64,000 bases of DNA from a virus (IMGVR_UViG_3300031344_000003:38815-102814), one strand, 5' to 3'. Shown: positions 16,670 to 63,853, counted from the first letter of the stretch. Program-made: numbers and translations. Notes: generated by a model not told the origin, from the sequence alone.

Positions 16670-17417
16670 AATTGGGAGATCAATACGAATGGCACAGCAC
16701 GATAAAGAAGACCAGTTGACCGATCTCCTCAAGGGCGTCGACATCAAGGGCATCGTCAATGGCGCGTTGCAGAAGGGTGGTGCTGTCGCTGCCCCCATCG
16801 ACGAGGCCTACGTGGCGCAGCCCAAGCCCTACTCGCAGGTGACGGAGTTCGTGTCCCAGAAGACGAAGGACGCCCACACGTCGCTGTACCAGAAGTACGT
16901 CGAGACGTTGAACCGGGTGTCTGCTGAACTCGACACTGCTTCGAAGTCGGAAGCCAACAGCAACCACTCCGACTTCAGGAGCCTGAAGCTTGATGAGACG
17001 CGGTTGCTGAACGCGGTTTGGCTACATGAACTTTACTTCGCCAACTGCTTTGACGTTCATAGTGAGTGCTACATGAATTCCATGGCGTACATCCGCCTGG
17101 AACGTGACTTCGGCACCTTTGAGGACGCACAGCAGGACATGATGGCATGTGCGCTGGCCTGCGGTGAGGGCTGGATGATCACCGCCTACAACATGTTCCT
17201 CAAACGCTACGTCAACGTCATGGTCACCGACAACAGCCACGACGTGATGTTGGGGCTGTACCCGATCATCGTCATCGACATGCATGCTCACGCGTACTTC
17301 AAGGACTACCTGACTGACAAGAAGAGCTACCTCGTAGCGATGATGCGCCAGCTCAACTGGAACGTCATCGAAGAGCGGTTCACCAAGGCTGAATCGATTG
17401 CCGAGGTGGTCAAGTGA
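16662..17417 (+). CDS. Fe/Mn superoxide dismutase-like protein
   Basis: AVWLHELYF (like WNHTFYW), DFGTFEDAQ, GEGWMITAY and IDMHAHAYFKDYLTDKKSYLVAMMRQLNWNVIEERF parallel SOD DVWEHAYYL...NWENV. Metal-ligand His/Asp positions look retained. Confidence 0.6.
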   Translation: MTEIGRSIRMAQHDKEDQLTDLLKGVDIKGIVNGALQKGGAVAAPIDEAYVAQPKPYSQVTEFVSQKTKDAHTSLYQKYVETLNRVSAELDTASKSEANSNHSDFRSLKLDETRLLNAVWLHELYFANCFDVHSECYMNSMAYIRLERDFGTFEDAQQDMMACALACGEGWMITAYNMFLKRYVNVMVTDNSHDVMLGLYPIIVIDMHAHAYFKDYLTDKKSYLVAMMRQLNWNVIEERFTKAESIAEVVK

Positions 17418-18067
17418 AACTCCGCGTCGGCGACCTCAAGCGCATCCTTGTCGAGGCCCAGCGTGGCCAACTGACGACCTATCACCGCATCCTGTTGACC
17501 GAGGAGGGCGATTCGGCTGCCCACACCGAAGGTGGTAGCGGTGAGTCGCTCGACAATCAGGTCGACAAGTACCTGATGCAGTACGAGAACGACTCCAAGA
17601 AGACCGACGGTGAAGTCCCCGGGGGTACGGTGGGCCAGATGGAGTCGGCTGACTGGCGCGACATCTGCCGTGGCATTCTGAATGAGGCAGGCGATGATGA
17701 CGCCGCCGACAAGCCCGCCAAGCCTGACCCCGATGCCGATGGCACCGAGGACGCCGGCGCGCCCGCCAAGCTCGGTGTTGACAGCCTCGACGTCGAGAAG
17801 TTCGCCAGCAACGTCGTCCGCCTGATCGAGAACTACGACAGCCTGCTCGAGGTGCGCAATACCCTGATGCGCCGCGCCAAGGCATTCTTGGCCAAGACCT
17901 ACGATGATGAGGTCTGCAAGACCTACGACGACGTGCTGCGCGATGACCACGGCATGGAGCCCGGTGCCAACAAGGGCGAGCTCAACGCCGACAAGTACCC
18001 AGCGCCCGCCGCCGACCGTGCCAGTGGCAGCGCCGAAGCGGGCCCCGGAGGGGGAGGCGCTCCGTGA
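17414..18067 (+). CDS. acidic protein with T4 internal-protein-type capsid-targeting N-terminus
   Basis: N-terminus MKLRVGDLKRILVEA fits the (K/R)-rich ... (L/I)xE-A pattern shared with T4 IP CTS (MKTYQEFIAEA). Confidence 0.45.
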   Translation: MKLRVGDLKRILVEAQRGQLTTYHRILLTEEGDSAAHTEGGSGESLDNQVDKYLMQYENDSKKTDGEVPGGTVGQMESADWRDICRGILNEAGDDDAADKPAKPDPDADGTEDAGAPAKLGVDSLDVEKFASNVVRLIENYDSLLEVRNTLMRRAKAFLAKTYDDEVCKTYDDVLRDDHGMEPGANKGELNADKYPAPAADRASGSAEAGPGGGGAP

Positions 18068-18450
18068 AGAGAAACGGCGTCCTCAGGAGAAAGAACATAC
18101 ACGTCAAGCTGACCCGGGAGACGCACACTGCCTTCAAGATGCGCCTGTTGGAGCACGACGTGCCGATGCAGCGTGCCTTTGAGGCCTTCGCCGAGGCCGT
18201 CGCCGACGGTTGGCAACCTGCAATCAACATCGTCATCCGCGAAGTCCGCCGGAAGTTGAAAGACGAGTTGTTGTCGGTGGGCATCAAGCCGATCGACCTG
18301 AAGCGCAAGTTGAAGGCGCCTGGTCCTGTCAGTGAACTCGACGCAGACACGTTGTATGATTTGATCAGCGACGACGAGGATGATTCGGAATCGCCCAATG
18401 ACGATGAAGAACCACCCATGACGCAAGGACATCACCATGAAGCTGCTTGA
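18064..18450 (+). CDS. hypothetical protein (GTG start, basic N-terminus, acidic C-terminus)
   Basis: GTGA overlap with the upstream gene. Confidence 0.35.
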   Translation: MKRNGVLRRKNIHVKLTRETHTAFKMRLLEHDVPMQRAFEAFAEAVADGWQPAINIVIREVRRKLKDELLSVGIKPIDLKRKLKAPGPVSELDADTLYDLISDDEDDSESPNDDEEPPMTQGHHHEAA

Positions 18451-18712
18451 TAAGGCCTTCAACAAGGCGCTGATGTTGGCTCCACCCATCGTGGAGTTAG
18501 TCAATGCCCTCAAGTCATGCGTGGACACGCTGCATGAACTAGCGCAGCACACGGCATCGCTGATTCGTACCCAGACTTATCACCAGCGCGTTCTCGAACA
18601 CCTGCACGCTCAACAGCAGCAGATCATCGGTCGCATGATGGAACACAAGCTCGACACCACGCTGCCCGCACTCGGCGACGGCGTCATTGACGACAAGAAC
18701 AAGCCCAATTGA
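18437..18712 (+). CDS. hypothetical protein
   Basis: ORF only. Confidence 0.35.
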   Translation: MKLLDKAFNKALMLAPPIVELVNALKSCVDTLHELAQHTASLIRTQTYHQRVLEHLHAQQQQIIGRMMEHKLDTTLPALGDGVIDDKNKPN

Positions 18713-18804
18713 ATTCACGAGGAGAACACCATGGTCGACAAGAAGAAGTCATCGCCTGACAAGGGCACCCAGGGTCACGTCATCCCGGGGACGGATCCGA
18801 TTCT

Positions 18805-19209
18805 ATGAGCCTCTCTGTCTTCGGCGTCGTCCTCAACTTTCTCAAGGCACACTGGGGCGCGATCGCGCTGGTCGGCCTCGTGGCGGTGGGTTATGGCTGG
18901 TTCCACCACCAGAATGCGCTCAACGTCGCTGCACTTGCACAGCTCAACACCGCCCACCAAGTCGAGATCACCGCAATCAACAAGGCCCGTGCCGACGAGG
19001 AAGCACAGCACGCGCAGGAGCAGCAGGCCCTGCAGGCGTCGCTGGCTCAGGCCCAACAACAGTTTGAGCAGGCCACCGCTGCACTGGCAGTGAAGCAGGC
19101 CGCCGAACAAACGAAGATCGCCAAGCAGTACGCCAATGATCCCGTTGGGCTAGCGACGCTGTTGAGCGCCAAGTTCGGTTTCGCCGTGCAACCCCCGGCG
19201 GGCCAGTGA
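18805..19209 (+). CDS. N-terminally anchored coiled-coil membrane protein (i-spanin-like?)
   Basis: TM helix ALVGLVAVGYGWF followed by a Q/A-rich coiled coil. Confidence 0.35.
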   Translation: MSLSVFGVVLNFLKAHWGAIALVGLVAVGYGWFHHQNALNVAALAQLNTAHQVEITAINKARADEEAQHAQEQQALQASLAQAQQQFEQATAALAVKQAAEQTKIAKQYANDPVGLATLLSAKFGFAVQPPAGQ

Positions 19210-19778
19210 GGTCGCTCATGAATTCACCTCGCATCATCGCCACGGTGACAGTCGTCGCCCTGATCGCTGCAACGTCGGTGCCCGCTTGGGCCGACGACGC
19301 CGTGCTCGCAGCGAACCATGCAGCATCGGATGCAGCCTCCAACGCAGCTAGCGCTCGGGTCACCGTAGCGCTCACTGCCCCTGCACCGGTGGTCACCACG
19401 CCGCCCCCAGTAATTACGCCGCTCAAGCTTGGGCAGGTAGCTCCGTACCCGGGTGTGCTATTTTCTCCCAGCGCTGTAGGCCAGATCATTGCCCAGCAGG
19501 ACACGGCGATGGCCACGTTGCAGTTGTCGGTGCAGCACCAGGCGACGATCGACGCAGATCAACAGAAGTTTGCCCTTGATGCCGCGGCGACGACGTGCAC
19601 CACTGACAAGAGCATCTTTAGCGCGCAATTGACCGACGCACAGAAGCAGAACTTGATCCTGCAGGACGAGCTGAAACGTGAGTCATCGGGCCCAGGCGCG
19701 GGCACGTGGATCGGTCTCGGCGTCGTCGGTGGCATCGTCTTGACGGTAGTGACCGCGTTTGCCGTGGGTAAGCTCTGA
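19206..19778 (+). CDS. secreted/membrane protein (signal peptide and C-terminal TM)
   Basis: IIATVTVVALIAATSVPAWA signal peptide. C-terminal GLGVVGGIVLTVVTAFAV. Confidence 0.4.
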   Translation: MRSLMNSPRIIATVTVVALIAATSVPAWADDAVLAANHAASDAASNAASARVTVALTAPAPVVTTPPPVITPLKLGQVAPYPGVLFSPSAVGQIIAQQDTAMATLQLSVQHQATIDADQQKFALDAAATTCTTDKSIFSAQLTDAQKQNLILQDELKRESSGPGAGTWIGLGVVGGIVLTVVTAFAVGKL

Positions 19779-19812
19779 CCAGCGACCTATTTACGTTGGT
19801 GAGGTCGTGCTC

Positions 19813-20184
19813 ATGGCAAACTTGTGGATCAAGGATCAGAACGGCGATCCCAGCGTCATTGTGACACTGGTCGCGGTGTCGTTTGTGGCGGTGACAGTGG
19901 GCTACGTGATGTCGCTGTTCGATCGCATCGGCACCGTGTCAATCAGGCCCTTCGACGTCGCGGCGTGTGGTGCTTATTTCGGGAGCGTGATGGCCGCCTT
20001 CGTGGGCCACCATTGGGTGACGACCAAGTACGTCAATGGTCAAGTCGTCACCGATGATTCGTCGGCGACCGTCACCACGACCCAATCAGGCAGCGGTAAC
20101 ACCGTCACCGCGACGACTGATGCAACGTCGACGACCACGACGATGCCAGTGGTGCCAGGAACGAACCCCGGGGTCACGACATGA
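19813..20184 (+). CDS. membrane protein with Thr-rich tail (holin-like?)
   Basis: GGTGAGG RBS. TM VIVTLVAVSFVAVTVGYVM. Confidence 0.4.
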   Translation: MANLWIKDQNGDPSVIVTLVAVSFVAVTVGYVMSLFDRIGTVSIRPFDVAACGAYFGSVMAAFVGHHWVTTKYVNGQVVTDDSSATVTTTQSGSGNTVTATTDATSTTTTMPVVPGTNPGVTT

Positions 20185-21401
20185 CGACCATTGTCACCGA
20201 CGATGCCCTCCGCGAGATGGTGCGCGAGGCGCTCTCCAACACGGGCTGGAGCAATGAGGACGCGGGCACTGCCAACGTCAACCCCGTCGTCGATCCGTCG
20301 AAGGCCGTCACCGACCCCGTCAACCCCAACTTCACGCCCCAGACCAAGACCGAGTTCGGCGTGGCGATCAATCAGCTAGTCAGGAACCTACCCGACACCG
20401 AGATGCCCGACCTGTATGGCGTCGTCAAGAAGACGCTAGACCAGCGGACTGAAAAAGAAGAGGAACAAGCGATGGACAAGAAGGCAGTGCAAGGCGGTTC
20501 TCAAGAAGCGATCGATGACGCGAAGAAGAAGCAAGCTGAGGCGGTGATCCGCAAGGCCGTCCGCAAGGCGCTGGCTGAGGCACCCCTGCCCCCGGTCAAG
20601 AAGATCCCGATCGGTGTCCACGGCAAGGAATTCAACGATCGGGTCGAGAAGACGAAGGCCGGCCTCAAGAAGTCGTTGGGCACCGCGGCGGCTGAACTCG
20701 ATAAGCCTGATCAAGAAGAACTTGATGCTGTTGCCGATGGCGGTAATGCACCTAAAGGGCGCAACAAGGCATACAAGCCCGGCGCGTTGGGGGGCATGCA
20801 GGACGTCGGCGGTCAGTCGTTTGAGGCCATTGCCAAGGAAGTGGGCATGTCGGTCGCCGGTGCCAAGCAGCTCGTCGACAAGTCACTGGAGAAGTTGAAG
20901 TGGCTGCACCGCCTGCCCGAAGACGACCGTGACATCCTGATCCTCACCACCGCCAACGACTACATCAAGACGCTGGCGCAATCGGGCGAGCTGACGGCGC
21001 CCGACATTCAACTGATGAAGGATCACCCGACGATCGTCACCGAGCTCGACGGTTTCCGCGAGTACCTGCACGACGTCATCACCAAGGCACGCAAGCCCGG
21101 CAAGAAAATCAACGCCTTCGGCGAGGGGACGGAGGCCGACGAGGTCAACCAGCTCAACGAGTCCGCCAAACGCTTGGTCACCACGTTGACCGAGGTCATC
21201 GGCAACCACGCCGTGGTGCAGGCCGACATGCGAGGCCCCTACATCGTCATCGAGGGCCGCGAAGCCCGCCCGCGTGATCCCAACAAGACGCAGTACGCCG
21301 CGGGCACCAAGGTGCGAGTGCACCAGCGGGCCAGCAAGGGCGTGTCATTGGTGGAGATGCCCAACGGGGAACAGTGGACATTGAAGGGCATGAAGGGCTA
21401 A
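20181..21401 (+). CDS. CTS-bearing protein with a sigma-70 region-4-like HTH
   Basis: N-terminus MTTIVTDDALREMVREA (LRE / VRE-A). Internal SFEAIAKEVGMSVAGAKQLVDKSLEKLKWL resembles sigma region 4.2. Confidence 0.45.
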   Translation: MTTIVTDDALREMVREALSNTGWSNEDAGTANVNPVVDPSKAVTDPVNPNFTPQTKTEFGVAINQLVRNLPDTEMPDLYGVVKKTLDQRTEKEEEQAMDKKAVQGGSQEAIDDAKKKQAEAVIRKAVRKALAEAPLPPVKKIPIGVHGKEFNDRVEKTKAGLKKSLGTAAAELDKPDQEELDAVADGGNAPKGRNKAYKPGALGGMQDVGGQSFEAIAKEVGMSVAGAKQLVDKSLEKLKWLHRLPEDDRDILILTTANDYIKTLAQSGELTAPDIQLMKDHPTIVTELDGFREYLHDVITKARKPGKKINAFGEGTEADEVNQLNESAKRLVTTLTEVIGNHAVVQADMRGPYIVIEGREARPRDPNKTQYAAGTKVRVHQRASKGVSLVEMPNGEQWTLKGMKG

Positions 21402-21407
21402 ACGTCG

Positions 21408-22187: not shown

Positions 22188-22243
22188 TGTCTGGCGCCTG
22201 AGCGGGTTGATTAAGCCCAGTCAGGCCGTCAATTGATCACCGC

Positions 22244-22702
22244 TTACCGAATGTGGACTTCTAGCCCCTGAGGGCCTTGGTGTTCTTGTGAGTGCTGACG
22301 ATCCTGCTCTTGGCGCTCTTTGTCCTGTCGCTCTTTGTTCTGTTGCTCTTGCCTCTGTTGCTCCTGAAAATTACGGTCTTGTTGGTCACGTTCTTCGTGC
22401 TTGCGCGCCTCTTCTTGTTTCTGCTTGTCTTCTTGCACACGCTGCTGGCGAAGGCGCTCTGCCTGATTCGCTTGTTCCTGACGTTGCAGCGCTTGCTGAG
22501 CGCTGTTCTGTCGCTGTTGTTCCTGCTGAATCTGAAACTGACGATCGCGCTCGGTGTTGTCAACAACAACGGGCGGGGCTGCGGGCACGAACACCTGTTG
22601 TGGCGCCGGCACGGGTTCTGGCGTGGACTGAACGGGTGCTTGGCAACCGATTGCCACCGTCGACGCGGCGAGTAGTGAGAATAGAATTGACTTGAATTGC
22701 AT
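22244..22702 (-). CDS. lipoprotein with Q/E/R-rich low-complexity body
   Basis: MQFKSILFSLLAASTVAIGCQAP signal peptide plus lipobox. Low-GC region. Chosen over the plus-strand ORFs here, which lack features. Confidence 0.45.
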   Translation of the reverse strand: MQFKSILFSLLAASTVAIGCQAPVQSTPEPVPAPQQVFVPAAPPVVVDNTERDRQFQIQQEQQRQNSAQQALQRQEQANQAERLRQQRVQEDKQKQEEARKHEERDQQDRNFQEQQRQEQQNKERQDKERQEQDRQHSQEHQGPQGLEVHIR

Positions 22703-22833
22703 GGTATTTCTCCATCGAATACTTAACTAAGTCAGTGCAATTGTTGTCCACTAATTCGCGATGAATTCTCAATCCGAGCATGTTGAAAGTTCGCGGAATC
22801 CTGACAGCGTACCACCCACGACCTACTTAGATC

Positions 22834-23244: not shown

Positions 23245-23253
23245 GATCGTGCT

Positions 23254-23673: not shown

Positions 23674-23682
23674 TTATTTGCC

Positions 23683-25788: not shown

Positions 25789-25789
25789 C

Positions 25790-25989: not shown

Positions 25990-27258
25990 GTGGGAGGTGC
26001 GAGCGGGCATCTTCGACATTTGCACGACAACCTCGACCTGACGTTCGGGGAGTTGAAGGATGTGTTGTCGTCGGCGGCCGATGGCAAGCTCGAGCGCACC
26101 AGTGAAAAACTCGACGGGATCAACCTAGTCTTCACGTGGGCGGGTGATCAACTGAAAGTAGCCCGCTCGGGCGGTGACATCAAGAGCGGCGGCATGGACG
26201 CTGTAGGTCTGGCGACCAAGTTTCAGGGGCGCGGCAACCTGGCCGACGCCTTCAACGGTGCCTTCAAGGTGCTCCGCGACGCGGTGGGCTCGCTGAGCGA
26301 CGCCGTCCGAGCCAAGGTCTTCAACGACGGCCGCACCTGGTACTCGATTGAGGTCATCTACTCCAAGAATCCCAACGTCATCAACTATGACGCCAACTAC
26401 GTTGTCTTCCACGCCAGTCCCGTCTTCCACGTCTCACGCGCCGGCGAGGTCAAGAAGCTCGACTCTGCTCCCGGCGTGGCCTTGTTGGAGAAGCACGTCG
26501 ACAACATGCAGCGTGCCCTGACGCAGCGTAGTTGGCAGGTCAGGGGCCCGGCTCTGGTTCGCCTCAAGAAGCTGAGCGACGGCAACGCCGTCAAACGTGC
26601 CTTCACCATGATCGGTCAGGCACAGTCGATCGCCGGAGTGGGTGACGATGATACCCTCGGCGATTACCTCGCGGCGCGGATGACTGATGAAGTCGCGGGG
26701 CTCGACCTGCCACCCAAGGTCGCCAAAGCGGTGACGGCTCGGGCGGTGGGCAACCCGGGCGCACCGTCGTTGCTCAACCTGAAGAAGCTCGTCTCGCCCG
26801 ACCAATATGCCGCCGTCAATCACTTTGTCAAGGCATCGCCGGGCCTGCTGAAGAAGTTCATTGAGCCCATCGAGCGTGCCGTCCATGAGTTTGCGATTGA
26901 GGCCCTGCGTGGCATGCACTCCACGCTCATCGGCAACAACGACGCCGAGGTGCAGCGCCTGCGGGGTGAGGTCGCCCGGGCCGTCAAGGCGATTGAAGCC
27001 AGCGGCGACGCCACGGCGATGGACGTGTTGCAGAAGCAGATGACGAAGTTGGGTAGCATCGAGAATGTCAGCAGCGCGATGGAGGGCGTTGTCTTCACGT
27101 GGAAGGGCAACTCATATAAGTTCACGGGTGGGTTTGCGCCTGCCAACCAGATCCTCGGCCTGTTCAAGTACGGGCGCAAGGGCGTAAAGATCCCCGTTCA
27201 AGAGGCCTATTTAAGGCACGCGGTCGCTCGGTTGGTCGCCAATGGGAGACACAGATGA
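25990..27258 (+). CDS. RNA-ligase-like nucleotidyltransferase (Rnl2 / PF09414-like motifs)
   Basis: Motif I EKLDGIN (cf. Rnl2 EKIHGTN). SIEVIY / NYVVFHA (III/IIIa-like). EGVVFTWKGNSYKF (cf. EGYVLK...KCKNSKF). A roughly 200-aa insertion precedes motif IV, so the call is tentative. Confidence 0.4.
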   Translation: MGGASGHLRHLHDNLDLTFGELKDVLSSAADGKLERTSEKLDGINLVFTWAGDQLKVARSGGDIKSGGMDAVGLATKFQGRGNLADAFNGAFKVLRDAVGSLSDAVRAKVFNDGRTWYSIEVIYSKNPNVINYDANYVVFHASPVFHVSRAGEVKKLDSAPGVALLEKHVDNMQRALTQRSWQVRGPALVRLKKLSDGNAVKRAFTMIGQAQSIAGVGDDDTLGDYLAARMTDEVAGLDLPPKVAKAVTARAVGNPGAPSLLNLKKLVSPDQYAAVNHFVKASPGLLKKFIEPIERAVHEFAIEALRGMHSTLIGNNDAEVQRLRGEVARAVKAIEASGDATAMDVLQKQMTKLGSIENVSSAMEGVVFTWKGNSYKFTGGFAPANQILGLFKYGRKGVKIPVQEAYLRHAVARLVANGRHR

Positions 27259-28064
27259 GGGTTAGGTTGGGCTTGTTGAGAGAGCAGATACGCGCCATTC
27301 TGACGGAGTCGCCCGCCTCAAACGCATTTGAGAAGCACGTTGCATCAGCCGTAAAGGCCGCCCTTTCTGGGACAGGTGCCAAGATTGAACACGCTGGCTC
27401 TTCTGAGTACTCTGACATCCGCATTGACATCCCGGGCATTGGGTCATCATTCCTCGAAGTGAAGCTGACGTCAGGTGACAACCTTGGCAACCCACGCCTG
27501 CAATACGATGGTAATCAGTGGATCGTTGCCGGCGACAGTGGTTCGCCGCTGGCAGCCTATGCAGTAGAGTTCATGAATGAGTCACCCGAAGCGCAGGCCT
27601 TCATCAATGACCTCAAGGCGTTCCTGAAGACTGACACCGTCAGGTTACAAGGCAAGAAGCCCGGGTCGGTAACGTTGCCGCAGATCAAGGCGTTCTTAGC
27701 CAAACGACCCAACAAGAACATCGCTGAGCTTGACAGCGTCGATGCCGCCGCGTTGGCCACACAGCACTATGCCGTCGCCAAGAAGGAACCTGCTCACTAC
27801 GTACAGGCAGGCGACGACTTCTACCTCATGGGTAGTGCAGATCCATTGGACTTGAACCTGGTCAACGATGGGCAGATCCCCGTCCTCAGGGGCATGGGTC
27901 GGCTGGCGGTTCGCATTGCCGATCGCAGCGCGCGCTATGAGGTACAAGTGTCAGTGAAGATGTGGAAGCACGATCCGAGCCCATTCTCGGCCATGCTGCC
28001 GACCTCTAAGGTCAATCCCTTCACTGCACTGGCTAAGTCACTGAAGGCCCGCAAGCGCGGCTAA
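27255..28064 (+). CDS. CTS-bearing protein with PD-(D/E)xK-like motif
   Basis: N-terminus MRVRLGLLREQIRAILTES. IRIDIPGIGSSFLEVKL fits D-x(n)-E-x-K. Confidence 0.4.
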   Translation: MRVRLGLLREQIRAILTESPASNAFEKHVASAVKAALSGTGAKIEHAGSSEYSDIRIDIPGIGSSFLEVKLTSGDNLGNPRLQYDGNQWIVAGDSGSPLAAYAVEFMNESPEAQAFINDLKAFLKTDTVRLQGKKPGSVTLPQIKAFLAKRPNKNIAELDSVDAAALATQHYAVAKKEPAHYVQAGDDFYLMGSADPLDLNLVNDGQIPVLRGMGRLAVRIADRSARYEVQVSVKMWKHDPSPFSAMLPTSKVNPFTALAKSLKARKRG

Positions 28065-30299: not shown

Positions 30300-31340
30300 A
30301 TGGCGTCCGACAAACTGCTACGTGAGTTCATCAGTGAGGTGGTGCTGCTCACTGAGGAGGGCGAAGGTGGGGGTGAATACGCTGACTTATCAATGGCAGA
30401 TGCTACGGGCAGTCCCTACGGCATGTCGTTCGGCTCCAACGACGACCTCTACAACACCTTCGTCAAACCCTTCACCGACGTGGTGGGCGTGGCCGCGGGC
30501 AAGACCAAGGCCCTGTCACAGAAGGGTCAAACCCTGGTACGCGTTGCCTTCGAGGCCGTGGCCACGACGCTGGTGCCCATCCTCCGCGACTCCTACGGCG
30601 AGATCTTCGAGAAGGAGAAAGAGGAACTCGACAAGATTCGTCGTGACTACCACGACGTCTTTCAGGCCACTTGGGATGCCTTCGAAGACCACGATGCGTT
30701 GCTGGCCGCATTCCTCCATGCGCCGGCGTCGTTCATCACGTCGCGATTGGCCAAGCAATCACCCAAGGTCGTCATCAAGATGATCAGCGTGCTGACGGGC
30801 GGCACCCTCGACACGTGGCTCGATAAGGTGAAGAACGCCTTCGGTGTCGAGGGTGGCCCATCAGGTGCCAACAAGCCGGTGCACGGTGGTGACAGTGGGC
30901 CCATGGAGAGCACCCTGCATGAGGATGGGGGTAACCACCCACCCATTGAGCAGGTGCTGACCAGCGACAAGGTGAGGGCCCGTGTCGCCGATGCGCCGGT
31001 GACCAAGAAGTTGCAGCAACGTGGGACGGAGATCACGCGCGGCACCCTGGAGAAGGTCTACAAGCAGGCCAAGGGGGTGTTGGGTGCCAAGTCGCTGGAG
31101 CAATTGCAACAGTTGGTGCATAGACCGCTCAAGGGCCTCGACAAGATGAAGGGCGTCCCACAACAGGAGCGTCAGGCGGCGGAACAGCAGATCTTGGCGG
31201 CGGCGAAAAAGTCGATGCGTGAATTCTACACGAAAAACCTCGAGGGTCAGGTGAAGCAGGCGCTCGACCAGGGAGTGCCCGACGACTCGCCTTATATCAG
31301 TGACTACCGGCGCGTCATCAGCAAAATCAAAGCACTGTGA
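30300..31340 (+). CDS. CTS-bearing protein (346 aa)
   Basis: N-terminus MASDKLLREFISEVV parallels 43602 (VASDRDLLRQLIREVL). Confidence 0.45.
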   Translation: MASDKLLREFISEVVLLTEEGEGGGEYADLSMADATGSPYGMSFGSNDDLYNTFVKPFTDVVGVAAGKTKALSQKGQTLVRVAFEAVATTLVPILRDSYGEIFEKEKEELDKIRRDYHDVFQATWDAFEDHDALLAAFLHAPASFITSRLAKQSPKVVIKMISVLTGGTLDTWLDKVKNAFGVEGGPSGANKPVHGGDSGPMESTLHEDGGNHPPIEQVLTSDKVRARVADAPVTKKLQQRGTEITRGTLEKVYKQAKGVLGAKSLEQLQQLVHRPLKGLDKMKGVPQQERQAAEQQILAAAKKSMREFYTKNLEGQVKQALDQGVPDDSPYISDYRRVISKIKAL

Positions 31341-36097: not shown

Positions 36098-36418
36098 ATG
36101 AAGACGACAGTGGGCAAGTTGAAGCAGTTCATCACAGAAGCGATGGACATTCCGCAGTTCAAGTCGATCAAGGGGTTGTCACGCTTTGTACACAACAAAC
36201 ATGCACACGGTACCGTGGTGACTCGGGAAGCGATCGCCTTCACCAATCCTCCTCCCGAAGCAGTCAGGTTCACCGTCGGCGCTGGTTATTTGGTCGGTTG
36301 GAACACTGATGACCCACGACAACGTAACATTGATTGGGAGCTCCACATCAATGAGCCGGGTGGGTTTACCGATGGACCACCTTGGGAATACAAGTGGGTG
36401 AAAGTGGGGACGGGATGA
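36098..36418 (+). CDS. small CTS-bearing protein
   Basis: N-terminus MKTTVGKLKQFITEA is strikingly like T4 IPIII MKTYQEFIAEA. Confidence 0.45.
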   Translation: MKTTVGKLKQFITEAMDIPQFKSIKGLSRFVHNKHAHGTVVTREAIAFTNPPPEAVRFTVGAGYLVGWNTDDPRQRNIDWELHINEPGGFTDGPPWEYKWVKVGTG

Positions 36419-36678
36419 AGACGACAGTCGGCAAGCTTCGTAACCTCTGTGCTGAGGCGGTCTCGGCGCACCCCGACTACTTGAAAAAGGAAGCGCTGCG
36501 TGAGGCCCTCCAACAAATCATCACCACGTCGGTAGCATCAGGTGATGTAGCGACCCAAGAAAGGCTCGATGGCCTCTTCGGCGACCTATCGATGGCACTG
36601 AACGCCTTGAAAGGCGTTCCCTTTGACGTGTGGGTGAAGATGGCGACGAAAGCGACGAAGGTGAGGAAGTCCCGTTGA
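36415..36678 (+). CDS. small CTS-bearing protein (tandem paralog of 36098)
   Basis: N-terminus MKTTVGKLRNLCAEA. The first roughly 20 nt are identical to 36098. Confidence 0.45.
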   Translation: MKTTVGKLRNLCAEAVSAHPDYLKKEALREALQQIITTSVASGDVATQERLDGLFGDLSMALNALKGVPFDVWVKMATKATKVRKSR

Positions 36679-39976: not shown

Positions 39977-40192
39977 ATGCGACAGTGGCAGCGTGCGATC
40001 GGCTGGTTATGGGCAGCGCCGTTGACGGCGTGTGGCCTGCTCTACGTCAACCTCTTCACCCTGTTGGGTTGGTACCGGCGCCAACAGAAGGTCATCGTCG
40101 ACACCCTCTGGGTTGATACTTATGAGGATGCGATTAAAACTCGGTACGTTGAAACGACTCATCAGGGAGGCTTCGATGGCATCTGCTGTTGA
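39977..40192 (+). pseudogene. truncated paralog fragment of the 40538 gene (N-terminal 35 aa conserved, then diverges and overlaps the next gene)
   Basis: WLWAAPLTACGLLYVNLFTLLGWYRR vs YVWAAPLTLLGLIYVNLFTLLGWYRH. The underlying 72-bp DNA repeat is about 85% identical. Confidence 0.3.
40009..40080. repeat. about 72-bp dispersed direct repeat; second copy at 40579-40650
   Basis: tgggcagcgccgttgacgg...ctacgtcaacctcttcaccctgttgggttggtaccgg vs tgggcagcaccgttgacgc...ctacgtcaacctcttcaccttgttgggctggtaccgg. Confidence 0.6.
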
Positions 40193-40481
40193 TCTGTTGT
40201 CACAATGGGCAAAGAGATACGATTTCGAACCTTCTTCGGGAAAAGAGTGTGAACGCTATCTCGAAGACATGGCAGAAACAGAAATTCCCAAAGTTTGTTT
40301 TTATGACAACAATAGCACAGTTCATGAACCACCGATTGCTTGGGTTGCAGCTGATGATCGGATCATGATCGTCAGCGACGGAAGTGGTCCCACGGGCGTA
40401 TTCTGTCGCGAAGTTTCGAAAGACGAACTTGAAGCGGCACTTCAACCTGACGCGGCGCCAACTGACATCACTCCGGAGTGA
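40122..40481 (+). CDS. small CTS-bearing protein
   Basis: N-terminus MRMRLKLGTLKRLIREAS. Confidence 0.45.
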   Translation: MRMRLKLGTLKRLIREASMASAVDLLSQWAKRYDFEPSSGKECERYLEDMAETEIPKVCFYDNNSTVHEPPIAWVAADDRIMIVSDGSGPTGVFCREVSKDELEAALQPDAAPTDITPE

Positions 40482-40537: not shown

Positions 40538-41032
40538 GTGTGTCCCATGTCCAAGGTCACGCAAGTAGCGGGCTACGTTTGGGCAGCACCGTTGACGCTG
40601 CTCGGTCTCATCTACGTCAACCTCTTCACCTTGTTGGGCTGGTACCGGCACCTGGGCACCTTCGGCGATGCACTGGCTTGGGAACCCAAACCGCACTGTT
40701 TGCCGCCGTGGTTGGCACGCCACTGGCACCTACGAGCGGGCCAATCACTGGGTAACGTCGCTGTCCTCAATGTCAACCTCGCCACCCACACGGGTCAATT
40801 GGCACTGCACCACGAGCAGGACTGCATCAGGCAGGCGATGACGTTGGGCCCGCTGTACCCGGTCGCCTATGCCGTAGTGTGGGCAGCGATGAAGGCGGCG
40901 TGCCCGCGGTCGAACCCCCACTTCTCGCACCCGTTCGCCGTCGAGGCACGTCGAGCCGCGGGTCAGCTCATTGACGTTGAGGGTGCCTACGAGAAGCTAC
41001 GGGCACACCATCACCCCGCGAAAGGCGACTGA
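40538..41032 (+). CDS. hypothetical membrane-associated protein
   Basis: Hydrophobic N-terminal helix shared with the 39977 fragment. Confidence 0.4.
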   Translation: MCPMSKVTQVAGYVWAAPLTLLGLIYVNLFTLLGWYRHLGTFGDALAWEPKPHCLPPWLARHWHLRAGQSLGNVAVLNVNLATHTGQLALHHEQDCIRQAMTLGPLYPVAYAVVWAAMKAACPRSNPHFSHPFAVEARRAAGQLIDVEGAYEKLRAHHHPAKGD

Positions 41033-41079
41033 TCGGCCTATTTCGGCCTGAGGTCTTCAGACTGAGGGTATTTAGCGGC

Positions 41080-41331
41080 ATGGCCCGCATTGCCCTGACA
41101 CCTGACCGCCTCAAGCACATCATCAAGGAAGAGCTCGCACAGGCCCCCGTCGCAGGCGCGGGCATCGGCAAGCTACTGAGCGATCTCGTCGGCACCTTCG
41201 AGGCCAAGCTGAGCCAACAGTACCCGGGTGACGTCGTCAAGCGCGAGGCCGCTGATCTCAAGACGCAGATCGAGGCGTTGCTCCGTGCCGCGGTGACCAA
41301 GGTCAAAACCGCACAGGGGAAGGCGTCGTGA
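41080..41331 (+). CDS. small CTS-bearing protein
   Basis: N-terminus MARIALTPDRLKHIIKEEL. Confidence 0.4.
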   Translation: MARIALTPDRLKHIIKEELAQAPVAGAGIGKLLSDLVGTFEAKLSQQYPGDVVKREAADLKTQIEALLRAAVTKVKTAQGKAS

Positions 41332-41918: not shown

Positions 41919-42778
41919 TGACGCAGACATACCGCAAGACGTGGCGACCTGATAGCACCCAACCACTGCCCGCAGGCCAAGCCGCATTCCACGACCTGCC
42001 ACTCGGGGCGGCTAACCTCGCCTCGGTGCTGGCGGCGGGCGCTGCTGTGCCCAATCAGATCGTGGAACAGGGTGGCATCCTCGACCTCAGGCCCCTGTGC
42101 CCACCAATTGACAACCAGTACCAAGTGTCCGACTGCGTTGCCGATGCCACGTGTTCGGCGTTGGAGTTCTGTCAGATCCGCAATGGCCTGCCCTTCGTCA
42201 AGCTGTCACGCCTGTTCATGTACTACAACGCTCGATTGCAGACGCAGGACACCGCCAACGATGCAGGCACCTACATCAGGTTGGCCTTTAGCACTCTCGC
42301 GTCGCTGGGCACCTGTCCTGAGTCCACGTGGGCCTATGACACCTCAATGATCTTCACCCGCCCGTCGTGGGAGAGCTACCGCGAGGCGTATCCCAACAAG
42401 GTCACCAACTTCTACTCGATCAGCCAGCTGTTGATCGCGGCGAACAACATCATCAATCCCAATTCGTTGACGGCCTCCATCAAGCAAGCACTGCAGGCGA
42501 TCCACCCGGTCGTCTTCGGCATGACCGTTGATGAAGGTTACGACAACACGGGTCGCGACGGCATGGTGGCGATGCCGGCATCGAAGCGCATCAGTCCCGG
42601 TGGCCACGCACAGATGATCTGTGGCTACAACGACAACCTACAGCGATGGATCGTCAAGAACAGCTGGGGCACTGGTTGGGGCGACGGGGGATACTGCTAC
42701 GTGCCCTATGCCTACTTGGGTGCGTCCGGCGTCGACGACATCTGGGTGCCGACGCTGGCACCGGGCCAGCGGGCGTGA
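41915..42778 (+). CDS. papain-like (C1) cysteine peptidase
   Basis: Q..SDCVADATCSALEF (Gln-Cys), GGHAQMICGY (His), NSWGTGWGDGGY (Asn-Ser-Trp). Confidence 0.65.
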   Translation: MMTQTYRKTWRPDSTQPLPAGQAAFHDLPLGAANLASVLAAGAAVPNQIVEQGGILDLRPLCPPIDNQYQVSDCVADATCSALEFCQIRNGLPFVKLSRLFMYYNARLQTQDTANDAGTYIRLAFSTLASLGTCPESTWAYDTSMIFTRPSWESYREAYPNKVTNFYSISQLLIAANNIINPNSLTASIKQALQAIHPVVFGMTVDEGYDNTGRDGMVAMPASKRISPGGHAQMICGYNDNLQRWIVKNSWGTGWGDGGYCYVPYAYLGASGVDDIWVPTLAPGQRA

Positions 42779-43110
42779 CACACCTGCTGCGCACCTTCAT
42801 CCACGAGGCATTGCTCCACGAGCTGCGCCGTGACCACAAGTTCATCACCCACCTGCGGACTTCTGGGTTGGGCGAGCCCGGGTCGAAGGAAGGCTTTGAA
42901 GCGCGACGACTGGCGGATGATTGGCTGCGCGACGTGGAATTAGAGCTGGGTCGGCCCCTGCGACCCGCTATCAAGGCAGGCGTCCGCAAGTTCGTCGAGC
43001 GGCGGTGGGCAGGCCTCCGCGCACGTTTCAAGGGCGATGAACAGGCGGCGCAACAAACGCTTTCCAACTTGCTCAATACCAAGTACGTTGACCTGAGGAC
43101 GGGAGACTAA
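42775..43110 (+). CDS. small CTS-bearing protein (GTG start, GTGA overlap)
   Basis: N-terminus VTHLLRTFIHEALL. Confidence 0.35.
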   Translation: MTHLLRTFIHEALLHELRRDHKFITHLRTSGLGEPGSKEGFEARRLADDWLRDVELELGRPLRPAIKAGVRKFVERRWAGLRARFKGDEQAAQQTLSNLLNTKYVDLRTGD

Positions 43111-43111: not shown

Positions 43112-43612
43112 ATGGGCATCAAGATCTTGCGACACTACACTAGCAGTGCACGGCCTCTCATACAGATCGCGGCGTGGGCAGCCGTCGCCGGCACGGTGAC
43201 GCTGGCACTGGCCACGTGCACGTCGTGTCACAGCACCGGGGTGCTCATCGTGCCCACCAACCCGCCGACCATCACCGATCAATCGGCATGTGCACAGGCG
43301 TGTGGCAACCTCGTGGCACTGGGTTGCGTGGAAGGCACGCCCATCGACACTCACCAGACGTGTAAGGTCGACGCCGACTGCTTGGGAGTGACAGGCGTCC
43401 ACGATGAATATCAGACGTGCTCCGTCGCCTTCACCTGCATGGTCACCTGCGTCAACTTCTGCACCGCGACGGAGAACACCGGCGTGTGGCTCGACCCCAC
43501 GTGTGCGGCCAAGATCACTTCGTGTGACCAACTGAGCACCTGTCCGGGCCCACAGACGGCGGGCACCAGCTGCACCGGCCCGGGCTGCAAGGTGGCGCCG
43601 AGTGGCAAGTGA
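43112..43612 (+). CDS. Cys-rich secreted lipoprotein
   Basis: Signal peptide with LALATC lipobox. 18 Cys in the mature part. Confidence 0.5.
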   Translation: MGIKILRHYTSSARPLIQIAAWAAVAGTVTLALATCTSCHSTGVLIVPTNPPTITDQSACAQACGNLVALGCVEGTPIDTHQTCKVDADCLGVTGVHDEYQTCSVAFTCMVTCVNFCTATENTGVWLDPTCAAKITSCDQLSTCPGPQTAGTSCTGPGCKVAPSGK

Positions 43613-44174
43613 CCGTGACCTGTTGCGGCAATTGATCCGCGAAGTTCTCACCGACTTCAACACCAAGACGCTCGGCAAGGACGGCGTTGCGGGCAACGTC
43701 TTCAACACGGGCCTGACGACGGGCGGTGCGGGTGTGTTGAAGCAGAACGGCAACATCCTCGATGATGAGGATGCCGACGAACAGCACGACGAACAGAGCA
43801 CACAGCGGGCGGCGTGCTGTTTAATCGTGGGCCACGATGGGACAGTGCTGTGCGTGTCACGGAAGGATGATCCCACCGCTTGGGGCATGCCGGGAGGGAA
43901 GGTTGATCCCGGCGAAGACGACGAGACTGCTGCGGGTCGAGAGTTGACGGAAGAAGTGGGCCTGACAGCGACGGCGCTGCACCCGGTCTTCACTATGCGC
44001 GACAGGCAGGGGTTCACAACGACAACATTTGCCTGTGAAGTTGACGGCCAGATCAACACCAGCGAATCGGGCGTCATCAGGTGGGTGCACCCGAGCCTGT
44101 TGTGCAATGATGCCCACTCGCCGTTCGCTGCGTATAATCGGGCCCTGTTTGCCGAGCTGGGAGTGAAAACTTGA
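43602..44174 (+). CDS. NUDIX hydrolase with CTS-type N-terminus (GTG start)
   Basis: N-terminus VASDRDLLRQLIREVL. Nudix box GGKVDPGEDDETAAGRELTEEVGL. AGGTGG RBS. Confidence 0.6.
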   Translation: MASDRDLLRQLIREVLTDFNTKTLGKDGVAGNVFNTGLTTGGAGVLKQNGNILDDEDADEQHDEQSTQRAACCLIVGHDGTVLCVSRKDDPTAWGMPGGKVDPGEDDETAAGRELTEEVGLTATALHPVFTMRDRQGFTTTTFACEVDGQINTSESGVIRWVHPSLLCNDAHSPFAAYNRALFAELGVKT

Positions 44175-56962: not shown

Positions 56963-56999
56963 TTGAACAATCGGCCTAATCAGGTGTATGATTGAGGCC

Positions 57000-58989: not shown

Positions 58990-58998
58990 GTATGACAT

Positions 58999-59781: not shown

Positions 59782-59787
59782 TTGTCG

Positions 59788-61091: not shown

Positions 61092-61453
61092 AGCGCAATG
61101 TCACGTTGATCGGGGGCCGTGGCCGTGGGTGCCGGGGGCGTGATTGTGGTCGCGGTCGGGGCGGCGTACGGTGCACACTTGCACACGACGTTGTTGTCGA
61201 TGATGTGGAGCGAAGTGTGGGGCGGACACGTGGCCACGTCGTGCTGTTCAGGTTCAACATTGACAATGACGTCAACGCACGCATTGCGCTCGTCCAGCCT
61301 TTCAACGCCGCGTCCCAACACGAACGTCAACCCAATTATAACCGTGGCGATGAAGGAAACGATCAGGCCATCAGTGACAGGTTTGAAAGACTTTGCCCAC
61401 ATGTTCAAGCTCCTCTTACAGCACGCACCATGAACGATTGCGATCATTGTCAT
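61088..61453 (-). CDS. hypothetical membrane protein
   Basis: TM LIVSFIATVIIGLTFVL. Confidence 0.3.
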   Translation of the reverse strand: MTMIAIVHGACCKRSLNMWAKSFKPVTDGLIVSFIATVIIGLTFVLGRGVERLDERNACVDVIVNVEPEQHDVATCPPHTSLHIIDNNVVCKCAPYAAPTATTITPPAPTATAPDQRDIAL

Positions 61454-61643
61454 CGAGGAGTAATTCGTGCACTCGTTCCTCGAACAATGCTAACACTGAC
61501 CAAGTCATCTCATTGATGAAACCTCGACGTTGTTGATGTTGACACGAGATGATCAAACCCACGGTATACATCGGTGTCAACCATGGATCACGGTTTAGAT
61601 CAATGCGCCTAGTCACGGTCTTAAGTAGTGAACCGGGCTGCAT
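61416..61643 (-). CDS. small PGxL-motif protein
   Basis: N-terminus MQPGSLLK. Confidence 0.25.
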   Translation of the reverse strand: MQPGSLLKTVTRRIDLNRDPWLTPMYTVGLIISCQHQQRRGFINEMTWSVLALFEERVHELLLDDNDRNRSWCVL

Positions 61644-61679
61644 CTGATCAGAGTGTAATCCACGTAGGAAGGATGTACT

Positions 61680-62048
61680 GTGATTGAGATGGAATTGATG
61701 TCTCAAGAGCGTACTTCAATCGTGCTTGAGGGCCATGTGACCCTGTCACGACCCAACTACACGACGCCGTTGTCGGCGATTGAATTGGCTCACATCAAGG
61801 CGGGCGAACCGCTGGCGATTGCCGCGGGGCGTAATCCCACCACCAACGGCATCACCTTCTTGCTGGCCTCAGGTGAACTCAGGGAGTTGGCTAATGCCAG
61901 CAGCCTAGGAATTCCTGATGGCGCTGTCAGGCCCACCGATCACGGTCAAACGCTCGCTGTAGACTGGTACGCCGGCGACTTTGAGATTGACGTGGGCTAT
62001 GCAATTGATCATAGTGCCATCATTGGCTTAGATTCTCAAGAGAGGTAA
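61680..62048 (+). CDS. hypothetical protein
   Basis: AGGAAGGA RBS. Confidence 0.4.
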   Translation: MIEMELMSQERTSIVLEGHVTLSRPNYTTPLSAIELAHIKAGEPLAIAAGRNPTTNGITFLLASGELRELANASSLGIPDGAVRPTDHGQTLAVDWYAGDFEIDVGYAIDHSAIIGLDSQER

Positions 62049-62057
62049 CAGAAGTAC

Positions 62058-62417
62058 ATGTTCAACGCATTCCTCGTCGCGTTAGCGCTGTTGGCACCGA
62101 CGTATCAACCCACGCAGCAGGCATTCAAAGCGGGTGACATTCAGCCTGATCACACTCGCACCTACGTGATGCCGGCGACCAAGCGTGGCTATTACTACTC
62201 GGTCAATGTCAGGGGCCTTTCCAAGGGCGGTGATGTCGACTGCTACTTGTTGACCAAGAACACCGAAGGCAAAGGTTTTGTCATCAAGTACACTGATGAG
62301 AGCACGGCCAACAAGTGCAGCTTTGGTTTCTACGCGTCGGGCAATGACACGTACAAGTTGTGGTTGGTCAACAACGGTACCAGCGATGATGCCTTTGATG
62401 TCACCGTCACTCAGTGA
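62058..62417 (+). CDS. secreted protein, function unknown
   Basis: Signal peptide MFNAFLVALALLAPTYQ. Confidence 0.45.
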   Translation: MFNAFLVALALLAPTYQPTQQAFKAGDIQPDHTRTYVMPATKRGYYYSVNVRGLSKGGDVDCYLLTKNTEGKGFVIKYTDESTANKCSFGFYASGNDTYKLWLVNNGTSDDAFDVTVTQ

Positions 62418-62435
62418 GCGCGCCTATCTATAGCA

Positions 62436-62702
62436 ATGAGGCTCACCCTACGTCGTCTACGACGATTGATACGAGAATTCGGTGTTGACGACACACTACG
62501 GAATGATGCTGGCTTCTTCATGGCAGGCGGCCTGAGTTCAGCGCACCGTGACCGTGAGAATACGTTGATGGATCCACCGCCCGGGTTGGGCAGTGACGCA
62601 GAAGAGACAGATGACGCAGAGAAGGATGGAGACATTGAAGACAAATCACAGTTCGCAGTCAGGGTTGACGACAAACGAGGCGGGCCGGGACGATCGGCTT
62701 GA
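62436..62702 (+). CDS. small CTS-bearing protein
   Basis: N-terminus MRLTLRRLRRLIREF. Confidence 0.45.
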   Translation: MRLTLRRLRRLIREFGVDDTLRNDAGFFMAGGLSSAHRDRENTLMDPPPGLGSDAEETDDAEKDGDIEDKSQFAVRVDDKRGGPGRSA

Positions 62703-62703
62703 A

Positions 62704-62898
62704 ATGCAGGGTAAGGTCGAAGAGTGCATGCCGGGCACGCTGTTCCGGGTGCGCTGCGACAACGGGCACCTCGTCCTGTGTACCTTGAGCGGCAAGTTGA
62801 GGCAGAACCGCATCAGAATACTGGCCGGTGACGCGGTGACGTGCGAGTGCAGTCCGTATGATGTCTCGAGGGGTCGCATCACCTGGAGACGTACGTAA
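62704..62898 (+). CDS. infA: translation initiation factor IF-1 (S1-like OB fold)
   Basis: EMQGKVEECMPGTLFRVRCDNGHLVLCTLSGKLRQNRIRILAGDAVTCECSPYDVSRGRITWR parallels E. coli [64 protein letters not shown]. Confidence 0.75.
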   Translation: MQGKVEECMPGTLFRVRCDNGHLVLCTLSGKLRQNRIRILAGDAVTCECSPYDVSRGRITWRRT

Positions 62899-62903
62899 TC
62901 ACC

Positions 62904-63095
62904 GTGAAGTGGTTGCTCTATGTCTTGATTTTCACTGGCGCAGGTGTGTTGGGTTCCACCTGCACTTGGTTAGCATCGCGTGGTCGTACGTTCGATGCGG
63001 GTGTATTGACGTGGATGACGGTATGCACCACGTGGTTCATCCTCACTGACCTGCAGCTCGAACGTGCTGACACAACCAATCACCGTGTGACGTAG
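62904..63095 (+). CDS. small membrane protein (GTG start)
   Basis: Two hydrophobic helices. Confidence 0.3.
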   Translation: MKWLLYVLIFTGAGVLGSTCTWLASRGRTFDAGVLTWMTVCTTWFILTDLQLERADTTNHRVT

Positions 63096-63146
63096 TAAGG
63101 CTAGGACGTTGTTGTACTACTGGTTGATCGAACGTAGTATGGCAGT

Positions 63147-63416
63147 ATGAAATACGTCATCACTGCCCTGGTCGCCATGACGCTCGTTGCCTGCGCTTCA
63201 GGTCCCGTCTTCAATGAGGGTGCCGATCATGAAGAAGGCGCCGACATCCCGTGCCAGACACCCGGACAACCCCGTGCACAATTGGGTTGGCATGCATGTC
63301 GCCGTGGGCCCGTTGCCTGTTGCCCCGACGGTTATTCGTGCTCGGCCGACGATTTCGTGCCGCGTGCTGACGGCGCCTGTCGTTGGTGGGCCCCCACGGC
63401 GACGTCCCAATATTAA
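63147..63416 (+). CDS. Cys-rich lipoprotein
   Basis: MKYVITALVAMTLVACASG signal plus lipobox. Confidence 0.5.
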   Translation: MKYVITALVAMTLVACASGPVFNEGADHEEGADIPCQTPGQPRAQLGWHACRRGPVACCPDGYSCSADDFVPRADGACRWWAPTATSQY

Positions 63417-63444
63417 GGGAGAACGCGGTTGAGCCGCGACCTAA

Positions 63445-63455
63445 TTAGAGTGTTG
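63445..63455 (+). promoter_or_regulatory. TTAGAGTGTTG motif 15 nt upstream of ATG 63470
   Basis: Same 10-mer as at 48636. Confidence 0.25.
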
Positions 63456-63469
63456 GGTAGGACGAGCAC

Positions 63470-63853
63470 ATGAAGACAACACTACGTCGCTTGAAGCAGG
63501 TCATCCGAGAAGCCGCGGGTGAAGAGCACCTCAAGTCTTACGAGAACGTCACAGTGGGTGACTGGTACAAGGAACGTCCTGAACCTCGCTTTCGTGGTGC
63601 ACAGCCCGAAGCAGCCGACGTCGCACAGTTGGTCGACCTGTATTGGCGTGACTTTGGTGGCACTCACGGCAAGTTGTTGATGGCGACGCGACGTTTTCCC
63701 AGCGGGCACAGCACCAACAGCAGGTACGACGTGTGGATGGAGAAGTTTGAGGGCCCGGCGACGCCCGAAGAGGTCACCCAAGCGAAGGCACACGGTGATG
63801 CCAAACAGCGTCACATGGCTCGCACGATCGACACCTCACGCGAGGGCACCTGA
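63470..63853 (+). CDS. CTS-bearing protein
   Basis: N-terminus MKTTLRRLKQVIREA. Confidence 0.5.
   Translation: MKTTLRRLKQVIREAAGEEHLKSYENVTVGDWYKERPEPRFRGAQPEAADVAQLVDLYWRDFGGTHGKLLMATRRFPSGHSTNSRYDVWMEKFEGPATPEEVTQAKAHGDAKQRHMARTIDTSREGT

Follow-up and report, generated by a model that had tools for sequence, protein, structure and literature searches.

A shared N-terminal leader ending in hydrophobic-x-Glu on many unrelated proteins of a large uncultured phage: candidate T4-type capsid-targeting propeptides

Why should so many otherwise unrelated proteins of one phage begin with the same short peptide? The question is raised by a 64,000-nt stretch of phage DNA (IMGVR_UViG_3300031344_000003:38815-102814; guanine plus cytosine (GC) content 58%), called here the window at its full length, for which an earlier note had proposed that at least 12 proteins carry an N-terminus of the type that targets the internal proteins of T4 to the capsid, closing with an (L/I)xE site for a prohead protease. 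The shared leader proved genuine: it is confined to N-termini, behaves as a module and is under selection as a peptide; phages of a 300-360-kb clade have conserved it, and in other phages it occurs on small open reading frames (ORFs) neighbouring S77 protease genes. We favour, with a probability of about 0.6, the reading that the leaders are T4-type prohead-core targeting propeptides, in an expanded and longer variant, borne by many unrelated proteins that include enzymes.

All 12 of the claimed N-termini were found at their coordinates. In a six-frame translation of the window, the regular expression L[KRQ].[LIVMFAC][LIVMFCT].E matched 11 times on the plus strand, each match lying 4-10 residues past the start codon, and only 3 times on the minus strand, where the matches were junk. 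A 15-column hidden Markov model (HMM) of the leader, run against 110 predicted proteins (19,144 aa), gave 12 matches of 9.5-16.5 bits which started at residue 2-7; shuffled proteomes gave a mean of 0.01 matches of at least 10 bits over 100 shuffles. Because this model had been trained partly on window sequences, it was rebuilt from 28 leaders of other phages only, and with the rebuilt model the same 12 N-termini again came out on top, scoring 14.0 to 3.8 bits against 1.4 for the next best protein, with matches beginning at residue 4-9. Gene calls made independently on the public contig agreed with 10 of the 12 leader starts. Leader HMM scores of 10-18 bits are below the reach of significance against 5.8 billion proteins, and a database-wide search was therefore rejected. 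To the 12 proteins already noted can be added a strong case (a DnaJ/WGR protein), a weaker one (16361) and one that lies about 5 kb past the window end, so that 14 carriers are within the window, about 13% (one in eight) of the genes in the stretch. The carriers are as follows, a slash marking the putative cut:

5670-6758, minus strand: DnaJ and WGR protein (Pfam DnaJ, WGR); start MRLNIHEVRRLIQEA, leader MRLNIHEVRRLIQE/ALLNAYDILGV.
16361-16669, plus strand: 102-aa weak candidate, only 0.3 bits with the other-phage HMM; start MKKLQEVDVIRIMREE, leader MKKLQEVDVIRIMRE/EW.
17414-18067, plus strand: 217-aa acidic, Gly/Ala-rich protein; GTG start, also the start in the public gene call; leader MKLRVGDLKRILVE/A, with a second site, ILLTE/EG, at residue 30.
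20181-21401, plus strand: 406-aa protein with a weak sigma-70 region-4-like stretch; leader MTTIVTDDALREMVRE/A.
27255-28064, plus strand: 269-aa PD-(D/E)xK nuclease; leader MRVRLGLLREQIRAILTE/SPASN, L-x-E at residues 16-18 (ILTE/S).
30300-31340, plus strand: 346-aa all-alpha protein, clade-wide; leader MASDKLLREFISEVVLLTE/EGEGG.
36098-36418, plus strand: 106-aa protein; leader MKTTVGKLKQFITE/A; same start in the public call, found with both HMMs.
36415-36678, plus strand: 87-aa protein; leader MKTTVGKLRNLCAE/A (MKTTVGRLRSLFSEA in the L033 orthologue).
40122-40481, plus strand: 119-aa protein; leader MRMRLKLGTLKRLIRE/A; shares the highest score, 16.5 bits, with the first HMM.
41080-41331, plus strand: 83-aa helical protein; leader MARIALTPDRLKHIIKE/E; directly 5' of the lysozyme gene.
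42775-43110, plus strand: 111-aa protein; GTG start, same in the public call; leader MTHLLRTFIHE/A.
43602-44174, plus strand: 190-aa NUDIX hydrolase (PF00293, E=7e-18); GTG start; leader MASDRDLLRQLIRE/V.
62436-62702, plus strand: 88-aa protein, not in the public calls; leader MRLTLRRLRRLIRE/F.
63470-63853, plus strand: 127-aa protein; leader MKTTLRRLKQVIRE/A; same start called; top score with the other-phage HMM, 14.0 bits.
L001:15016-15330, about 5 kb beyond the window: a further carrier.

The leaders are 10-20 residues long and share the core h-x-x-L-[KR]-x-h-[IV]-x-E (h, hydrophobic). They fall into at least two sequence classes, the second of which is acidic (MASDKLLREF...), and the first 20 residues have a net charge anywhere between -3 and +5; the description of the leader as a basic amphipathic peptide thus fails for its charge, which is not always basic. 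Every carrier has a hydrophobic-x-Glu site within residues 6-30. The (L/I)xE ending proposed in the earlier note is accurate for most leaders, in which the hydrophobic residue is Leu or Ile; over all leaders the P3 residue may be L, I, V, M or C.

The DnaJ/WGR protein, which was absent from the original list, scores 14.1 bits with the leader HMM over residues 4-18, and its J domain follows the leader directly. A hypothetical cut after IQE would leave the N-terminus ALLNAYDILGV, which matches E. coli DnaJ (MAKQDYYEILGV) in register. The NUDIX assignment made in the note stands at the Pfam E-value given above; about 50 residues separate the leader from the NUDIX domain (residues 68-173), and the leader is kept in the L049 and L033 orthologues. 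The proposed sigma-70 region-4 helix-turn-helix of the 20181 protein is weak, with only sub-threshold Pfam matches (E 0.002-0.003); its leader ALRE(M/L)VREA is kept in 4 orthologues, and the L141 orthologue has ELRKFLREA. The 17414 leader is retained in the L014 and L141 orthologues, and the orthologues of 16361 retain DV(I/L)R(I/V)MREEW. PHROGs and Pfam returned nothing for most of the cargo proteins.

The start of 40122 is open to doubt, since the public call has position 40176 instead and the leader stretch overlaps ORF 39977-40192, a truncated paralogue of the N-terminus of the membrane protein encoded at 40538-41032 (80% DNA identity over 82 nt). Since 40122 begins within this truncated paralogue, the arrangement suggests that a duplicate of the membrane-protein gene received the leader gene by insertion. 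The 62436 protein is conserved in relatives, including an orthologue in a relative of 47.6% GC. Its ORF overlaps, by about 90-110 nt, an IF1-like ORF (eIF-1a/S1 fold; 62611-62898) which lies in the +1 frame, and the 47.6% GC relative (L017 3384-3860) shares this overlap. The two ORFs are each conserved separately; they may be a pair of genes that overlap, or the leader may be joined to IF1 by a programmed frameshift.

Could the likeness reside in the DNA, that is, in a nucleotide-level signal at gene starts (initiation context, RNA structure or promoter), in a recent duplication of a 5' segment, or in chance? MKT and MKL starts are common in well-translated genes, and three leader genes have the heptamer CTAT(T/C)TA 11 nt 5' of the start. 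Synonymous codons, however, differ between leader copies at nearly every position, and the leader is kept across genomes of 31-59% GC, which argues that a peptide is selected and not a DNA or RNA motif. Together with the 0.01 matches in shuffles and the recovery of all 12 leaders by an HMM trained on other phages, the codon differences effectively refute this explanation. The heptamer itself is found 11 nt 5' of the ATG of leader genes 41080, 62436 and 6758(-) (motif positions 41069, 62425 and 6769(-)), with no Shine-Dalgarno sequence between heptamer and ATG; it also occurs at 27208, 47 nt 5' of leader gene 27255, and at 19788 and 38506. It may represent a promoter class that gives near-leaderless mRNAs and co-regulates leader genes. 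The window holds no dispersed DNA repeat suited to finding other parts of the genome.

After the first 20 residues were removed, no similarity was left between any of the 15 carriers, so that the leader is a portable module. For at least 10 families, orthologues of 35-75% identity from genomes of 36-58% GC keep the leader. With a DNA pattern encoding MKTT-h-xx-L-[KR]-x-h-h-x-E-A, more small ORFs were found in IMG/VR and JGI contigs of 31-59% GC; in bacterial genomes the same pattern found only one unrelated Firmicutes protein family of about 710-740 aa, and the motif alone is therefore not diagnostic. Between conserved CN-hydrolase and pterin-4a dehydratase genes (window 22244-22830; L018 7969-8914; L141 4743-6783) there is a variable island that contains two MKTT-leader genes in one relative, three tandem paralogues beginning M.KLLKEYIQLLLQEK in another, and in the window only a hydrophobic 127-aa ORF; in this it is like the loci of the internal proteins in T-even phages, which are hypervariable. 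The L014 orthologue of the CCA-adding enzyme (4873-6036) begins with the leader-like MTLKLIREFVKHAL and the window orthologue (14648-15787) does not, and so a leader may be both gained and lost within orthologous families.

The 27255 nuclease family shows where the leader ends. Six leaderless homologues begin MS(A/T/L/K)xSD, and the leader-bearing forms read ...ILTE/SPASN, ...MLSE/SEASD and ...LLTE/SPKSD; the leaderless starts align directly after the leader Glu, so that the leader ends in L-x-E exactly where the leaderless homologues begin. One leaderless homologue is located in a T4-like replication module (family-B polymerase, UvsX, DnaB-like helicase), and a leader-bearing one (P0212) in a syntenic clade member. 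The AlphaFold2 model of the window protein has a separate leader helix (2-15) of lower confidence, followed by a confident fold from about residue 20. The model of the 30300 protein (73 homologues; pLDDT 81.6) likewise has a helix at 3-19, a low-confidence stretch and then an all-alpha domain, for which no structural neighbour was found. Among 90 homologues of the 30300 protein, LLRE and a later L-x-E(D/E), leading into an acidic, Gly-rich linker, are nearly invariant; the Glu which the earlier note chose as P1 is not conserved, and LLTE/EG may be the true cut site.

A helix, then a linker, then a domain is also the layout expected if the leader were an amphipathic docking helix for some other assembly (a microcompartment- or encapsulin-like shell, the phage GroEL, or a membrane), for which proteolysis would not be needed. 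The motif is that of a generic amphipathic helix, this phage encodes a GroEL, and the Firmicutes family shows that an unrelated bacterial protein can match the same DNA pattern. There is moreover an apparent close likeness to microcompartment encapsulation peptides: the PduD peptide (MEINEKLLRQIIEDVL) contains LLRQIIEDVL, a near-identical pattern to LLRQLIREVL in the window. A pure docking helix, however, leaves the Glu at the boundary between leader and domain unexplained. Neither a bacterial microcompartment domain (PF00936/PF03319) nor an encapsulin domain is among the precomputed Pfam hits of the called genes over about 61-140 kb of the contig, nor among those of the clade relatives L141, L143 and L144. 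Considering in addition that the leader in other phages co-occurs with S77 head modules and resembles the N-termini of the S77 proteases themselves, as described below, we regard docking without cleavage as unlikely.

The link to S77 proteases was seen on contigs of other phages. On a 186-kb contig of 32% GC (L020), the distance between an MKTT-leader gene and a Peptidase_S77 gene (Pfam E=2e-31; PHROG head maturation protease E=1.5e-52) is 6 kb, and the leader gene is in a neighbourhood of charged, low-complexity, core-like proteins. On L054, in a T4-like head module (TerL, Portal_T4, S77, Gp23, gp13, sheath), the protease gene is followed by two ORFs which begin MAKMTKSALKRLVKE and MKLTPSLLKRIIREE; the window protein 41080 resembles an 88-aa ORF two genes downstream of this protease, weakly (32% identity over 78 aa, pairwise E=1e-4). 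In the best 80 S77 loci of IMG/VR (1.1 Mb), 20 of 22 leader-HMM matches were at, or no more than 8 residues from, a start codon and 21 of 22 were on the protease strand, and two families of small ORFs recurred, one 0.5 kb downstream and one 3.3-4.4 kb upstream of the protease. Most of the S77 N-termini inspected (P0001-P0120; L057 3449-4087 is T4 gene 21) read (K/V/L)LL(R/T)E(F/W/Y)..(L)DY....h.E(A/S), with two Glu sites. This start, KLLRE[FWY]..(L)DY....h.E[AS], resembles MASDKLLREFISE and MASDRDLLRQLIRE in the window, i.e., the second leader class, and may be the proteases' own core-targeting propeptide; the N-terminus of gp21 (LIE-9) has been proposed to be like a capsid-targeting sequence (CTS) (PMC9026906).

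The same association bears on the suggestion that the leader is a regulatory tag, either a Clp/Lon-type degron that would time the turnover of early proteins, or a helix, common to the carriers, for oligomerisation or autoinhibition. The ClpX N-motif-2 is Met-basic-hydrophobic..., and several leaders begin M-(K/R)-h-x-h; a distant clade member encodes ClpP; and the carriers include a nuclease and a NUDIX hydrolase, the activity of which may need timing. What is conserved, however, is the core L-[KR]-x-h-[IV]-x-E and not the first five residues, the acidic leaders of the second class (MASDKLLREF...) misfit the ClpX N-motifs, and a turnover tag leaves unexplained both the association with S77 head modules and the small core proteins of structural appearance. 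We consider such a tag improbable.

The reading as T4-type targeting propeptides draws on what is established for T4. The 10-residue CTS is portable, suffices to package foreign proteins, and is the sole conserved part of the diverse internal proteins (PMC3012670; PMC9026906); gp21 cleaves after Glu in I/LxE (PMC12991175). The likeness to the CTS of internal protein III (IPIII) that the earlier note had pointed out is borne out by the T4 record, which gives MKTYQEFIAE/A for both IPII and IPIII, MLKEQLIAE/A for gp22, MNEPQLLIE/T for gp21, MAKINELLRE/S for gp24 and MELITELF for Alt. In the window a small leader gene, the lysozyme gene, a leader gene, the NUDIX gene and an endoV-like gene come in this order, which is like that of denV-ipII-ipIII-e-nudE in T4. 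By analogy, the amphipathic N-terminal helix of 10-20 residues would dock the new protein on the scaffolding core during procapsid assembly, the shell would close around it, and a Glu-specific prohead protease of the gp21/S77 type would then cut after (L/I/V)-x-E at the leader end, whereupon the freed enzyme would stay in the head and could enter the host with the DNA. The predicted cargo comprises at least 13 unrelated window proteins, among them a nuclease of restriction-endonuclease fold, the NUDIX hydrolase, the J-domain/WGR protein and a number of proteins that are small or disordered. We infer core binding, cleavage, retention in the virion, injection and a role in anti-defence or host takeover from these likenesses.

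Several results weigh against this interpretation. The prohead protease, major capsid protein, portal and scaffold were not found in the approximately 100 kb that was read (about 61-158 kb of the contig); towards 158 kb the sequence (IMG/VR 3300031344_000200) holds only small ORFs and a RadA-like gene. Contigs of the clade are absent from the best 120 S77 homologues, out of more than 8,000, and from the best 80 IMG/VR S77 loci, and distant clade members, which have the same synteny, show no head genes in the stretches examined. The replication genes are not T4-like, the polymerase being of the DnaE type. No match to a known family of virion proteins was obtained for any leader protein (PHROGs; tblastn against phages). 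The amphipathic h-x-x-h-h-x-E helix is a generic motif, and the DNA pattern also matched the Firmicutes family. The exact cut site is ambiguous, for the Glu of ISE/V in the 30300 family varies (A/Q/E/T).

Exact-protein look-ups place the window at about 66.5-130.5 kb of a 359,321-bp metagenomic contig (ena:ERZ27245402:k141_2233850), and identical sequence is also present in JGI and Logan assemblies from related samples. Searches of known phages with the leader proteins, DnaE and GroEL found no close relative among deposited phages. The 90 homologues of the 30300 protein are all metagenomic, on contigs of up to 361, 358, 351, 343, 325, 309 and 301 kb, and the window phage is therefore a member of a clade of 300-360-kb phages. 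Its genes are closely packed and nearly all on the plus strand, and the window encodes no tRNAs. The annotated genes are:

DnaE-type polymerase, RNase T, thymidylate synthase, thymidine kinase, dCMP deaminase, CCA-adding enzyme.
Superoxide dismutase, malate synthase and isocitrate lyase, 5'-3' exonuclease.
T4-type lysozyme, papain-like peptidase, endoV-like gene, Fapy glycosylase.
SPFH protein, TANGO2, AAA ATPase, GroEL, IF1-like protein.

Directly downstream of the DnaE gene, a low-GC island (2530-4196; about 47% versus 58%) encodes a protein with a TnsA-like endonuclease N-domain and a 239-aa partner, and looks like a newly acquired mobile element. Malate synthase and isocitrate lyase, the enzymes of the glyoxylate shunt, are encoded side by side in this phage genome (32120-35152); this is the sole region with DNA-level similarity to the phage collection, the top-matching records being Salmonella genome sequences, and isocitrate lyase is also encoded in the distant clade member L143. 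A CRISPR-like mini-array at 9321-9472 consists of 3 exact 28-nt repeats (GGTTGCTCCACGCGCGCGAGGCTGATAC) with two 34-nt spacers between them; it starts within the 3' end of ORF 9143-9469, is unchanged in five assemblies and has no Rfam match. The relative L048 has two similar, more palindromic repeats and a different 33-nt spacer. ORF 9143-9469 is one of three small paralogues beginning MKPGDLIEWAYK, the others (14071-14331 and 14328-14618) being in tandem.

A broader proposal, which we put forward tentatively and at somewhat less than an even chance, is that this soil/peat clade of 300-360-kb phages may have turned T4 capsid targeting into a general loading system, in which more than 10% of the encoded proteins would be sent into the head for co-injection; the load would take in the restriction-like nuclease, the NUDIX hydrolase and the J-domain protein, as well as hot-spot cassettes which are not the same in all relatives. 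Sequence could then be enough to list the packaged 'first-strike' proteome of uncultured phages. Should the leader serve as a capsid-loading signal, the proteins that large uncultured phages inject, a class rich in anti-defence and host-takeover factors and normally seen only by virion proteomics, could be predicted with nothing more than a genome in hand. The T4 CTS principle would then reach far beyond the T-even phages, with a longer and better-defined leader and with real enzymes as natural cargo, and new leaders would become available for engineering protein delivery by phage capsids. The pair of leaderless and leader-bearing nucleases in the 27255 family offers a ready natural experiment.

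Compared with known systems, the closest is the CTS of T4 (IPI/IPII/IPIII, removed by gp21, MEROPS S77), which is likewise a short N-terminal leader common to otherwise unrelated proteins. Both have the MKT start and the F-I-x-E-A end (MKTYQEFIAE/A in T4, MKTTVGKLKQFITE/A in the window), and in both the putative P1 residue is Glu and P3 is hydrophobic. In both, small leader genes lie beside lysozyme, NUDIX and endoV-like genes, and variable cargo genes occupy hot spots (PMC3012670; PMC9026906). The window leaders differ in length, by an additional 4-8 residues, in a further conserved L-[KR] that lies one turn of the helix upstream, and in falling into at least two sequence classes; about 13% of the window genes carry one, whereas in T4 only a handful do. 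The window carriers include recognisable enzymes, and they belong to an uncultured phage of about 360 kb which replicates with a DnaE polymerase. Environmental T4-like phages (L054, L119 and others, and Flavobacterium phage immuto) have the same leader (MKLTPSLLKRIIREE, MKLTSQLLRRIIAEE, MAKIGISRLKQIIREE) on ORFs near S77 genes, some within 0.5 kb, which encode helical proteins of 75-100 aa without a PHROG or annotated-phage match. Those ORFs lie within head modules and look structural, whereas the carriers in the window, several of them enzymes, are interspersed with genes for metabolism and repair.

In the phiKZ-like phages (phiKZ gp175 and SPN3US gp245, MEROPS S80), cleavage after the Glu of a three-residue motif affects many of the head and ejection proteins, and the SPN3US paralogues gp53 and gp54 have an identical 15-residue N-terminus that contains S80-type cut sites (PMC5694885). 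The motif there is (S/A/G)-x-E or A-x-E, as against L/I-x-E in the window leaders, and the propeptides vary widely in length instead of forming one leader common to unrelated proteins; the region annotated with Pfam and PHROGs (about 61-140 kb of the contig) has no phiKZ-like hallmark genes. The cargo peptides of microcompartments and encapsulins are also short amphipathic helices with a flexible linker, by which a variety of enzymes is brought into a protein shell. Such cargo peptides are not known to undergo cleavage, whereas the window leaders close with a conserved Glu at the boundary to the domain, and leaders of the window type co-occur with capsid proteases. The concept is thus a known one; the form of the leader, its scale, its cargo and the lineage in which it is found are new.

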